From a virus: DNA of 64,000 nucleotides. A model generated the notes under the pieces. That model had not been told where the DNA came from, did no database searches, and saw only the letters and a list, made by a program, of their open reading frames with translations. Of this stretch, positions 10,351 through 46,906 are shown piece by piece. Numbering within the stretch: the first letter of the stretch is position 1; each line of letters begins with the position of its first letter. The position numbers and the translations under genes are program-made. Location: UHGV virus genome UHGV-1682877; one strand, written 5' to 3'.

Positions 10351-11127
10351 ATGTTATATAGTTTAAATACAAGACTAAAAAAATTAATGCCAGATGAAAT
10401 CAAATGTCAAATAAATAGATTAGGAGACATTTTTGATTTAATTAAAGAAAATCCAGACATTAGATGTAATATTCAATACACTAATATGGGCGAATTATCT
10501 GAAAAAAAACTGGATGAACAAATTGATTTCATTAAAGAAGTGGCAAAAGATTATACAATAGCTGTAATTAATTTCCAAGATTTGCGGAAATTAAAAGCAA
10601 AAGGCTATAATGTATATTTAGATTTGCCGGTTTCAGATTGGGAAACTTTTAATAATTTAAAAAATATTGGCGTTTCAGATATTTACATTGACGGAGCTTT
10701 AGGATTCCAAATGGAGAAAATTGGAAAAGCAAAAGGAAAAATAAAGATTAGGGTTACTCCGCATATGTCGCCAAATGCGCAATGGTCATCTTCAGATAAT
10801 GAAAATTCTTTTTATATTCGACCAGAAGATATAGATAATTATTCTAAATATGTAGATATTTTAGACTTTAGAGATAACAGCAAAGATGCAGAAGAAACTT
10901 TATTCAATATTTATAAAAGGAAGATTTTTCCTTTTGATTTAAATAATTTAATTAGACAACTGAATTTACCAACTAATAATATTTATATTGCAAATAGTTT
11001 TTGTTCAAACAGATTGAATTGCGGGCAAAGATGTCAGGAGCCTGATATTTCTTGTCATTTATGTAGAAATGCAATTTTAATTTCTAATAAAATGAATGAA
11101 TATATTAGTTTAACGGAAAAAAATTGA
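10351..11127 (+). CDS. hypothetical protein
   Basis: 258-aa ORF; AAAGGAGAA SD; Cys cluster near C-terminus. Confidence 0.6.
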   Translation: MLYSLNTRLKKLMPDEIKCQINRLGDIFDLIKENPDIRCNIQYTNMGELSEKKLDEQIDFIKEVAKDYTIAVINFQDLRKLKAKGYNVYLDLPVSDWETFNNLKNIGVSDIYIDGALGFQMEKIGKAKGKIKIRVTPHMSPNAQWSSSDNENSFYIRPEDIDNYSKYVDILDFRDNSKDAEETLFNIYKRKIFPFDLNNLIRQLNLPTNNIYIANSFCSNRLNCGQRCQEPDISCHLCRNAILISNKMNEYISLTEKN

Positions 11128-11177
11128 TTTTCTTTAAAAAATATAATATAATATTTATATAATAAAAGAAATAATAA

Positions 11178-11214
11178 GTTTTATAAAACTCACCAAAGGT
11201 GAGTTTTATAAAAC
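11178..11214. promoter_or_regulatory. long perfect palindrome (agttttataaaactcacc aaa ggtgagttttataaaac); bidirectional terminator or operator
   Basis: Core is repeated at 37386-37420. Confidence 0.5.
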
Positions 11215-11236: not shown

Positions 11237-11962
11237 ATGAAACTAAATAATTATGATTATAGATTTTTAAAAAAGTTGTTACAGTCTACACAGCATGAAC
11301 TATTAGAATTTTTACCCAAAGCGCTTAATGCCATTTACCATAAAGAAGATATTATTATTACCAATAATTATATTTGCGCTAAAGGTGATATCCCAGTAGC
11401 TTTAGTTGCTCATTTAGATACCGTATATCCAGAACCACCTAAACAGATTTTTCATGATCCAGAATATAATATTATTTGGGGAACAAATGGTTTGGGTGCA
11501 GATGATAGAGCAGGCGTTTTTGCTATTTTAAATATTTTAGAATGTGGCTATAAGCCTACTGTAATTTTTTGTTGCGATGAAGAAAATGGCGGTTTAGGTG
11601 CTTATCAACTGACTAAAGATTTTTCAAAACCTTTCACCAATTTTGAAATGCTTATTGAGCTAGACCGCCAAGGAACAAAAGATGCAGTATATTATTCATT
11701 AAATAACACTGATTTTGAAAATTATATCAATAATTATGGATTTGAAACTGCGGTAGGTGTATTCACAGATATTTGTATTCTAGGCCCAATTTGGGATGTT
11801 CCCGCAGTTAATCTTTCTGTTGGTTATTTTAATGAACATAGTTATGCGGAAATGCTTTATTACCCAGCTTTATTTGATACTATTGATAAGGTTTGTTTAA
11901 TTTTAGAAGAAAAGAGGACAAAAGACTTTGAATTTACAGAAATCACTGGAAGCAGCAATTAA
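11237..11962 (+). CDS. Zn-dependent peptidase-like protein (M20/M28/M42-type motifs)
   Basis: AHLDTV and GADDRAGV resemble the metal-ligand motifs of co-catalytic zinc aminopeptidases; only 241 aa, so possibly a truncated or non-catalytic homolog. Confidence 0.45.
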   Translation: MKLNNYDYRFLKKLLQSTQHELLEFLPKALNAIYHKEDIIITNNYICAKGDIPVALVAHLDTVYPEPPKQIFHDPEYNIIWGTNGLGADDRAGVFAILNILECGYKPTVIFCCDEENGGLGAYQLTKDFSKPFTNFEMLIELDRQGTKDAVYYSLNNTDFENYINNYGFETAVGVFTDICILGPIWDVPAVNLSVGYFNEHSYAEMLYYPALFDTIDKVCLILEEKRTKDFEFTEITGSSN

Positions 11963-13232
11963 ATATTCTCAAAATTATTCTTTTCCTCTTGATTGTGAAG
12001 AAATAATTACTTCTTGGGAAATTAATAAAGCTAAATTGAACAAAGAATATTTGAACGAAAAAATTACTTTACAATTAACTGATGAACCAGTATCTATTAC
12101 TCTTGATGAAACTTTTAGAAGAGATAGTTTTTTTGAATTTATTGATAAAGTTATGAATTTGTTGGAACCATCTGAAGATGCTCCAGATAGTGAAATAGAA
12201 CTATATTACCATTTTTATGATTTTCTTAGTGATAATGTAAATAATTTTTATTCTAATATTGTTACTTCAGATTTTTTAAATATTGTAAAACGTGGAAGTA
12301 AAATTATTAAATCTTTTAAATATTTTGTTAAAGATAAACAAAAGCTCAGAAAAATCCAGGATATGGCAAGTGAATTAATTCAAACACAAAAAATTTCTGG
12401 ATATTTATTTGCTTCTATTGATCCATTTGAATTTTTAACTTCTAGTGAGAATAATTGCAATTGGCGTTCTTGTCATTCATTAGATGGAGATTATCGTGCG
12501 GGAAATATTAGCTATATGAATGATCAATCTACTATTATTGTATTTTTAGCAAATGAAGAAAAAATCAATGTAGACTGTTTACCAAAATCTATCAAAGTCT
12601 ATAATAAAAAATGGAGAATGTTAATTCATATAAATCAAAATGATAATATAATTTATTATGGAAGGCAATATCCTTCTTATAATAAAAATTTATTAGATTT
12701 AGTTTATAGTAAATTATTTTGTGATAAAGGTTTTATGCCTCCTAAAAAGGTTACTTTTGACCAAATTAATTTAAATCAGGATAATTGTATTGATTTAGAC
12801 CACAATTATATGGCATTAAATAACAAAGTTTTTGATACTTTAGAGTTAATTGATATTCCAGAAAATTCGTTAAATTATAATGATATTGTATATTCTTCAT
12901 TCTACCAAACGCAAGTCAGTATTAATAGAGAATATAAATATTATTATAGTAAAGATAAGCAAAAGACAATAGATTTATTTTTAACTAAAGTTGGTTATCC
13001 TGTTGCTTGCGCTTGCGGATGTGGCAGAAAAGTAAGTAATTCGGCAAGCTTTATTTGTGATACTTGTGCAGAAAAATATAATGCTGAAGGAAATTTATAT
13101 CCAATTTGCTCTTGTTGTGGACAAAGAATAAATTTAAAAGATAAACAGAGTTATAAACAAGAAGAAGAAGGTCTTTATTGTAGTCTTTGTTGGCGAGGAA
13201 TTAAGTCACTTGAACGTCAATTGAATTTTTAA
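11928..13232 (+). CDS. hypothetical protein with C-terminal CxxC clusters (paralog of 8148..9821)
   Basis: 434-aa ORF; TTG start in track; conserved NW(E/R)SC block and KKWR block shared with 8148 ORF. Confidence 0.6.
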   Translation: MNLQKSLEAAIKYSQNYSFPLDCEEIITSWEINKAKLNKEYLNEKITLQLTDEPVSITLDETFRRDSFFEFIDKVMNLLEPSEDAPDSEIELYYHFYDFLSDNVNNFYSNIVTSDFLNIVKRGSKIIKSFKYFVKDKQKLRKIQDMASELIQTQKISGYLFASIDPFEFLTSSENNCNWRSCHSLDGDYRAGNISYMNDQSTIIVFLANEEKINVDCLPKSIKVYNKKWRMLIHINQNDNIIYYGRQYPSYNKNLLDLVYSKLFCDKGFMPPKKVTFDQINLNQDNCIDLDHNYMALNNKVFDTLELIDIPENSLNYNDIVYSSFYQTQVSINREYKYYYSKDKQKTIDLFLTKVGYPVACACGCGRKVSNSASFICDTCAEKYNAEGNLYPICSCCGQRINLKDKQSYKQEEEGLYCSLCWRGIKSLERQLNF

Positions 13233-16087: not shown

Positions 16088-16209
16088 GAGACATAATCAA
16101 CCACCTCCACGCGGTATGTCTTGGGTAAAGCGAACGGTTGAATGATTTTGGGTACATTTGGATAATTTAGTAGCCAAAAAAACTCCATAATATAATGGAG
16201 GGATGTATA

Positions 16210-29214: not shown

Positions 29215-29247
29215 AAGGGAGTCAAAATGACTCCCTTTTTATTTTTT
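29215..29247 (+). terminator. rho-independent terminator (aagggagtc / gactccctt + T-run)
   Basis: Read directly. Confidence 0.7.
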
Positions 29248-29285
29248 TAAAAAAATATTATATAATATATATAGAAAGTTAAGGA
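29240..29285 (+). promoter_or_regulatory. sigma70-like promoter (-10 TATAAT 29261-29266) with leader
   Basis: Family consensus. Confidence 0.55.
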
Positions 29286-45811: not shown

Positions 45812-45849
45812 ATATGAATGAGCTTTTTTAAAGCTCATTCATATTTTTC
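45812..45849 (+). terminator. rho-independent terminator (atgaatgagctt / aagctcattcat + T-run)
   Basis: Read directly. Confidence 0.7.
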
Positions 45850-46856: not shown

Positions 46857-46873
46857 TTATAGCAATAATAACA

Positions 46874-46906
46874 AAAGTCAAGAGGATTATCCTCTTGACT
46901 TTTGTT
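46874..46906 (+). terminator. rho-independent terminator (aagtcaagagg / cctcttgactt + T-run)
   Basis: Read directly. Confidence 0.7.

Follow-up and report, generated by a model that had tools for sequence, protein, structure and literature searches.

Two perfect palindromes, lying at 11178-11214 (site 1) and 37386-37420 (site 2) of a 64,000-nucleotide stretch of the virus genome UHGV-1682877 (hereafter, the window), are on balance best understood as a pair of paralogous hairpins of the terminator or attenuator type that share an origin and are kept symmetric by template switching. Their common module would consist of an A-tract, a CTCACC stem, a 3-nt loop, GGTGAG and a T-tract, framed by AT-rich outer pairs. 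Site 2 would act as the factor-independent terminator that closes a cassette of lysin and holin-like genes, ahead of the promoter of an RNase H/topoisomerase/replication operon. The same core would have been copied into the 5′ leader of a peptidase operon, downstream of a family-type promoter, to produce site 1, where it would most likely serve as a weak terminator or attenuator of read-through, whether from the upstream operon or from the local promoter, and/or as a hairpin that stabilizes the end of the mRNA. Template switching, by copying one arm from the other and inverting the loop, would generate both the symmetry of the arms and an AAA/TTT polymorphism of the loop. What the sequences show directly is the structure and location of the palindromes, how often they occur, the flipping of loops according to arm length, and the turnover of sequence at the site 2 position in relatives; termination or attenuation, a common origin of the copies, and template switching are inferences from these.

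The window is AT-rich (~30% GC), carries essentially all of its long ORFs on the + strand, and holds 17 tRNA genes. Its recognized genes encode a PhoH/PIN protein, a C39-peptidase/SLH protein, RNase H, two topoisomerase II subunits, an ATP-dependent ligase, ThyX, YorF and YorH (both SPbeta families), an AAA_24 protein, DnaB, RecJ, the DNA polymerase III alpha subunit, and the anaerobic ribonucleotide reductase NrdD. It represents the early/replication arm of a ~137-kb SPbeta-like phage that infects an anaerobe and is found in human gut metagenomes; its close strains recur across many assemblies of human-gut metagenomes, some of them as full-length contigs of ~137.5-137.7 kb. Megablast of both palindrome regions against the INPHARED phages returned no match, and a scan of GTDB genomes with the extended arms also returned none, so that neither a host nor a prophage was found thereby. 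Homing-endonuclease polymorphism exists among the strains. In some relatives, a LAGLIDADG ORF splits phoH (748-1692 in L130 and L139, 1-360 in L160, 3-926 in L162) and a GIY-YIG ORF is found between the genes of the topoisomerase II subunits or inside them (5868-6342 in L136, 4475-5218 in L160); both are absent from the window, whose own GIY-YIG gene (16195-16842) sits among the tRNAs. In the same tRNA cluster, ARAGORN calls, at 16876-16948, a tRNA whose anticodon has four bases (tgaa) and whose identity it leaves undetermined; this could be a Phe-like tRNA with an 8-nt anticodon loop, and as such a possible frameshift suppressor, or a miscall.

Both palindromes are intergenic. Site 1 is preceded by a gene for a 258-aa protein without a family match (10351-11127, + strand), whose stop codon lies 50 nt before it, and is followed by an M28-like peptidase gene (11237-11962, + strand), whose ribosome-binding site (RBS) and ATG both come after the palindrome, the ATG 22 nt away. 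The peptidase ORF comprises 241 aa, most homologs listed in databases have ~300-350 aa, and it overlaps a 434-aa ORF at 11928-13232 for which TTG is given as the start codon; in this lineage, the gene could be a shortened or differently arranged version. Site 2 is preceded by a gene for a 113-aa protein with a basic N-terminus and two hydrophobic helices (37035-37376, + strand; stop codon 10 nt before the palindrome), located downstream of the C39-peptidase/SLH gene. From its sequence we read this protein as holin-like; in the relative L160, its homolog comes after an Amidase_2 gene. Beyond site 2 lies the RNase H ORF (~37534-38028). An in-frame TAA occupies 37531-37533, and the first ATG, GTG or TTG comes only after the catalytic YTDGS motif, so that translation must begin at ATC (37534) or ATA (37537). 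These candidate starts are 5-8 nt past the RBS GGGAGA, an arrangement that is kept in a relative, and the Pfam match begins at residue 3 if translation starts at 37537. Gene callers cut the gene to 107 or 152 aa.

The two palindromes resemble each other far more than any other hairpins in the window do. Site 1 has 17-bp arms (GTTTTATAAAACTCACC / GGTGAGTTTTATAAAAC) and site 2 has 16-bp arms (GGGTTATAAACTCACC / GGTGAGTTTATAACCC), 100% complementary in both cases and closed by the loop AAA. An inverted-repeat check thus upheld what a sequence-only reading of this DNA had reported, namely that both are perfect with 3-nt loops; the arms, given there as 15-16 bp, measure 17 and 16. That reading had also proposed a shared core of 25 nt. 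The core it named, actcaccaaaggtgagt, is indeed present in both sites, but exact identity extends over 21 nt: the longest exact shared stretch is AAACTCACCAAAGGTGAGTTT, at 11186-11206 in site 1 and 37393-37413 in site 2, composed of an A-tract, a 6-bp GC-rich stem, a 3-nt loop, the returning stem and a T-tract. When one A/T indel is allowed per arm, the similarity reaches TTATAAA[A]CTCACC-AAA-GGTGAG[T]TTTATAA (29 and 31 nt), and where the two sites differ, at outer arm positions and the one indel, each difference is compensated on both arms. With up to three mismatches, the core occurs in the window at these two sites only (expected 0.00 from 100 shuffles). The window contains 16 GC-containing perfect hairpins in all, and every other pair among them shares at most 7 nt, in agreement with the earlier remark that this pair is alike where the remaining hairpins all differ.

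How much this likeness says about descent depends on how much independent information it holds. The information is small, since the second arm is fixed by the first, A/T tracts flank most terminators, and AAA and TTT loops are common; it amounts roughly to CTCACC, the 6 bp of stem, and a handful of AT positions further out. Two independent terminators could then have converged on one short GC stem by chance, and the core does recur in many unrelated genomes among the matches listed in the wider searches described below. Such convergence would have to account for a similarity that covers 13/14 arm positions (TTATAAA[A]CTCACC) within a set of hairpins of which no other pair exceeds 7 shared nucleotides; by our own rough estimate its probability among 16 hairpins is p ~0.01, low though hardly astronomical, and we consider it very improbable. 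The common origin of the two copies, which we infer from this rough estimate, is held with modest confidence, as a terminator palindrome carries little independent information.

The surroundings of site 2 are those of a terminator. In order, they comprise the stop codon, 10 nt, the hairpin, TTTATTTGTTTTATTTTT, AAAAAAA, TGATATAAT, and the RNase H/topoisomerase/replication genes. The T-rich tail and ensuing A-run, TTTATTTGTTTTATTTTTAAAAAAA, occupy 37421-37445 (+ strand) directly 3′ of the stem, and the promoter of the RNase H/topoisomerase II/replication block has its extended −10 element, TGATATAAT, at 37446-37454 (+ strand). A terminator scan lists the site on the + strand with the tail TTTATTTGTT... 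The succession of hairpin, T-run, A-run and −10 element is also found at 1104-1132, leading to 1149, and at 29215-29237, leading to 29238/29258. Terminator-like sites as a whole are ~2.4-fold enriched in the window over shuffled sequence (17 against 7.1±2.5 expected, and 15 against 6.0±2.7). Given a layout common to other junctions and this enrichment, site 2 represents a standard terminator-promoter junction of this phage.

Compared with the intrinsic, potentially bidirectional terminators of Firmicutes and their phages, the pair has the familiar GC stem between an A-tract and a T-tract, in an intergenic position just past a stop codon. Both sites form a stable GC-containing stem-loop and both follow a co-oriented stop codon, by 10 nt at site 2 (37376) and by 50 nt at site 1 (11127). 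Site 2 adds a U-rich tract directly behind the stem on its + strand and, after that, the next promoter; the full stem of site 1 lacks such a tract. The promoter-like TGATATAAT that had been noted just 3′ of each palindrome stands for site 2 but has no counterpart near site 1 on the + strand. The pair departs from ordinary intrinsic terminators in its unusually long and perfect stems (16-17 bp), in the sequence that its two members share, and in the location of site 1, which sits without a coding-strand U-tail in a 5′ leader past a promoter.

Relatives of the phage provide a second line of evidence. In L160, whose holin-like homolog is 66% identical, the position of site 2 is taken by an unrelated perfect palindrome, its arms 17 bp long (GCTCTATTAAAATGCGT/ACGCATTTTAATAGAGC), after which come a T-run and TGATATAAT, within the syntenic order PhoH, lysin, holin-like gene, gyrase. 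In L164, the same position carries yet another hairpin, with 13-bp arms, right at the stop codon. Relatives thus keep a hairpin, in L160 together with its T-run, in other sequence. Structure and place, rather than sequence, are conserved at the site 2 position, as would be predicted for a terminator. A second copy of the L160- and L164-type palindromes was sought in IMG/VR, with zero matches, and among strains no recombination breakpoints are evident at site 2. Three Logan contigs of a diverged relative (L161, which ends at 2863, L162 and L163) all stop ~44-45 nt past the holin-like stop codon. At that position, L160 and L161 have a zero-loop, 34-nt perfect palindrome, and L161 ends inside its right arm. 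We suspect that these contig ends reflect a break in k=31 de Bruijn assembly at a self-reverse-complementary k-mer, a possibility that is useful to bear in mind when contig ends are judged.

The same hairpins could act on RNA without terminating its synthesis, as RNase III-type cleavage sites or as hairpins that protect the 5′ or 3′ ends of segments of polycistronic transcripts. Intercistronic RNase III sites are a feature of T7 and SP82, and both palindromes here are intercistronic on a single coding strand. The RNA hairpins are predicted to be very stable, at −21.7 kcal/mol for site 1 (minimum free energy; z −7.5; 5 GC pairs) and −25.3 kcal/mol for site 2 (centroid; z −4.6; 16 pairs, 7 of them GC); the DNA hairpin of site 1 is predicted at −15.8 kcal/mol, and the 17-nt core alone at −8.4 kcal/mol with an AAA or a UUU loop alike. 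Site 1, which has no U-tail and begins ~19 nt from the predicted transcription start, is well positioned for a 5′ stabilizer, and the predicted fold would leave the peptidase RBS unpaired. RNase III, however, prefers helices of ~20 bp, which exceeds the length of both stems. The strong U-rich tail at site 2 is typical of termination, and only the shared core sets these helices apart from the other long perfect hairpins. Rfam likewise offers no significant match: an E-value scan of the site 1 region found nothing, and that of the site 2 region gave sub-threshold chance matches only (NrrF at 24 bits against a gathering threshold of 60, MIR405 at 20 against 102). We therefore regard a role in RNA processing or stability without termination as unlikely, if still worthy of consideration.

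Site 1 presents the greater difficulty for the terminator reading. By alignment to a family of promoters in the window (described below), a promoter occupies 11124-11152 (+ strand) on its 5′ side, with the −35 element TTGATT, a 17-nt spacer and the −10 element TATAAT (11147-11152). The palindrome spans ~+19 to +55 of the resulting leader, between this promoter and the peptidase RBS, and is followed by the RBS and ATG of the gene at 11237 (gatggggatgatATG). Plain terminators seldom lie downstream of a promoter. The full stem runs, on the coding strand, into AAATAAGAAAG, which provides no U-tail, and the terminator scan lists the site on the − strand only. After the upper stem of 6-7 bp comes UUUUAU, paired with AUAAAA on the 5′ side of that stem. 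This arrangement would correspond to a bidirectional terminator, albeit a weak one. Efficient termination at site 1 is doubtful, as it would rely on the internal UUUUAU in place of a U-rich tail after the full stem.

Hairpins like that of site 1 are absent from comparable leaders. In other promoters of the family the downstream box leads straight to the RBS through a hairpin-free leader, and the upstream regions of distant loci for peptidase homologs (48-52% identity) likewise contain no hairpin, being occupied by a promoter-like element or by overlapping genes; site 1 is on these grounds a lineage-specific addition. One route would be copy-and-paste insertion of the palindrome between promoter and RBS, from site 2 or from a source common to both, a proposal that addresses the origin of the site and not its function. 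The hairpin-free leaders are consistent with it, and the AATAAG found on both sides of site 1 resembles a target-site duplication. This hexamer, however, is low-complexity leader sequence that also occurs in the leader of the promoter at 29258, and no such repeat accompanies site 2. In addition, only two copies exist, with none in other IMG/VR contexts or among the metagenome matches listed, the extended arms are absent from the GTDB genomes, and all ten strains carry the site without presence/absence polymorphism. We judge insertion of this kind to be quite unlikely. A mobile palindromic element of the REP or MITE type is unlikely as well, with two copies per genome that are present in all strains examined. 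The idea that site 1 is an inverted copy of the terminator-promoter junction of site 2 was set aside. The reverse similarity of the flanks (p ~0.007) is to be read against a promoter family that is itself quasi-palindromic, and the 60 nt upstream of site 1 match the nine family promoters better in forward orientation (alignment scores 34-52) than in reverse (21-37).

Terminator function alone does not account for the identity of the two cores. The sequence-only reading had offered two options, a specific operator or other site for a dimeric DNA-binding protein, or a conserved bidirectional terminator. The second has gained from the layout of site 2 and from the turnover of sequence seen in L160; the first has lost ground through the copy number and the geometry relative to the promoters. 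In the operator or roadblock reading, a dimeric phage or host protein bound to the duplex palindrome would control two operons together, that of the peptidase by a roadblock at ~+37 and that of replication from an upstream site at ~−58. The perfect dyad, with half-sites CTCAC/GTGAG centered ~10 bp apart, is compatible with a dimeric helix-turn-helix protein; the two cores are identical, unlike those of all other hairpins; both sites lie within ~50 bp of family-type promoters; and a protein that does not touch the central 3 bp would be indifferent to inversions of the loop. Yet the centers of the two palindromes fall on opposite sides of their promoters (~+37 at site 1, ~−58 at site 2), and the perfect arms of 16-17 bp far exceed those of a typical operator and equal the length of other terminators in this phage. 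At the orthologous position, relatives have an unrelated palindrome with terminator features. No DNA-binding Pfam domain is present among the called genes that adjoin either site, where most small ORFs are unannotated, and a 125-aa neighbor has no significant PDB match.

Copy number also speaks against an operator. The 64-kb window has no further or degenerate copies of the palindrome, and its half-sites are not enriched (15 against 10.8±3.4 expected). In the 137.7-kb IMG/VR relative, the exact core with any loop occurs twice only. The sequence-only reading had named a genome-wide lack of further copies, along with a lack of transcriptional effect on mutation, as evidence against its proposal, and for exact copies the first of these is the outcome, with two in the window and two in that relative. 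Taken together, we find operator function to be unlikely, though its dyad symmetry deserves to be kept in mind.

Outside this phage, the core takes on the appearance of a generic hairpin. Searched with any loop in IMG/VR, it was found beyond the relative in a single unrelated phage hairpin that sits between an A-run and a T-run. In a metagenome scan, it occurred in at least 120 stretches, dominated by a repeat family of assembly JACKQG01 (loop CCC/GGG) and otherwise made up of scattered hairpins flanked by A-runs and T-runs. The matches listed in the metagenome and viral scans keep the 21-mer frame with varied loops and A-run/T-run flanks in unrelated contexts (L003, L028, L031, L052, L089, L109), and one extra contig from this phage is among the metagenome matches listed. 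Judged by these occurrences, the CTCACC core recurs widely as a hairpin of terminator-like form. The JACKQG01 element is a highly repeated palindrome, AAACTCACC[CCC/GGG]GGTGAGTTT, that forms short arrays with a spacing of ~46-47 nt on many contigs (L011, L014, L017-L019, L029, L042-L050 and others); it is unrelated to this phage and resembles a family of genomic repeats from some organism.

Two phage systems invite comparison. The lambda nut (boxB) and HK022 put elements, near-identical RNA hairpins that control termination, likewise comprise exactly two copies per genome, transcribed and intergenic, with one just past a promoter. They differ in that site 2 here lies upstream of a promoter and carries a terminator tail, and no N-like or comparable factor has been identified. 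The function of boxB depends on the sequence of its loop, and an antitermination RNA site of the nut/boxB type is unlikely for palindromes whose loops, at either site, vary between AAA and UUU from one natural strain to another.

The second system is SPbeta itself, in which the SPBRE/MrpR operators, a 15-bp motif at about ten promoters, were first proposed as a repressor site from sequence alone (PMC10516654). The palindromes resemble these operators as a repeated intergenic cis-element in an SPbeta-like phage (PMC10516654), but are unlike them in occurring only twice and at inconsistent positions relative to promoters. By analogy, a nine-copy motif of the promoter family in the window is the better SPBRE counterpart. 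The family has the form AAAATTGAAAATTT.AAAAATATTATATAATATATATAGAAAGTTAAGAAAGGA...ATG, and its 17-mer TATTATAATATATATAG is found nine times with at most two mismatches (0.28 expected), starting at 1149, 4165, 4973, 13241, 22148, 24668, 24753, 29258 and 31780; degenerate members lie at 11120-11177 and 37439-37470. Its elements are a −35 TTGAAA (or a T7A7 run after terminators), TATAAT, and an invariant-looking box, ATATATAGAAAGTTAAG, just 5′ of the RBS. Lying downstream of the −10 element, this conserved box might function as an operator of the SPBRE/MrpR kind (PMC10516654) or as a signal read specifically by a phage polymerase.

Comparison among strains brings out an additional property of the palindromes, the inversion of their loops. 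Between the window and its closest IMG/VR relative, the loop alone differs within the palindromes: at site 1 and site 2 alike, the window has AAA and the relative TTT. Across ~10 strains, the arms are invariant except for one mismatch in one strain. At site 1, the loop is TTT in the nine other strain contigs and AAA solely in the window's own contig; at site 2, AAA is present in 5/9 of the other strain contigs and TTT in 4/9. The closest strains (at most 69 differences per 6.3 kb) all have AAA at site 2, and more distant strains are mixed, a pattern that implies two or more independent flips, heritable among strains, and that speaks against a random outcome of assembly. With five closest strains that share AAA and unambiguous flanks in the assembled contigs, an assembly artifact or a rapid flip-flop within the population is unlikely. 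The contrast of AAA/AAA in the window with TTT/TTT in the IMG/VR relative had first suggested concerted flipping of both sites. In its strict form this is contradicted by sample ERZ27227180, in which contig L144 shows TTT at site 1 and a separate contig, L135, shows AAA at site 2, on the assumption that a single strain is present.

Loop inversion is not confined to the paired palindromes. An unrelated palindrome at 45812-45844 (15-bp arms, loop TTT) has AAA in 2/9 strain contigs, and another at 46870-46906 (18-bp arms, 1-nt center T) has A at its center in one strain. These two flank the AAA_24 gene; the right arm of the latter contains the −35 element TTGACT of the next promoter, and L153 and L156 have a 1-nt insertion at its center. 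Flips are thus seen in 4/5 palindromes with arms of at least 15 bp, the fifth having been sampled in one relative only, and in 0/23 hairpins with arms of at most 13 bp (Fisher p ~2e-4). A look-up of further strains for the palindrome at 17704 gave the window's own contig only. Among the metagenome matches listed, an unrelated locus (L021/L060 against L120) flips between AAA and TTT in the same manner.

Small inversions associated with hairpins are known from chloroplast DNA. In the phage, the loop gives way to its exact reverse complement while stem and flanks stay as they are, and the change is not tied to one sequence. Inversion of the loop at perfect hairpins through template switching during replication is documented (Monttinen and Loytynoja 2022, PMC8794818), and the likeness to the phage extends to stems and flanks that are kept, recurrence in close relatives, and perfectly complementary arms. 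What distinguishes the present case is a standing polymorphism among the strains of one gut phage, at four intergenic palindromes and with an apparent threshold of arm length. The flips are thus a generic mutational property of the long palindromes of this phage, probably neutral and caused by template switching, which would also explain how the arms stay perfect.

A bolder interpretation holds that the pair is a dedicated cis-element, either a CTCACC dyad bound by a dimeric factor as a DNA or RNA helix, or a self-propagating "portable terminator." This is distinctly unlikely, and its two versions would have different consequences. If a dimeric factor were involved, it would be a phage factor that couples expression of the peptidase operon to that of the replication operon. 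A portable terminator would be copied into new intergenic sites, and site 1 would be a recent insertion in a promoter leader.

If, as we favor, the two sites are paralogous terminator- or attenuator-type hairpins, little changes in the general picture: they would be terminator-type hairpins in an uncultured SPbeta-like gut phage. Apart from their function, the strain panel offers a clean natural case of heritable loop inversion, at four separate perfect palindromes and with a suggested arm-length threshold, and in phage phylogenies such flips should not be counted as three independent substitutions. For the phage itself, site 1 would be a candidate for attenuation or mRNA stabilization in a group whose transcription program is poorly known.
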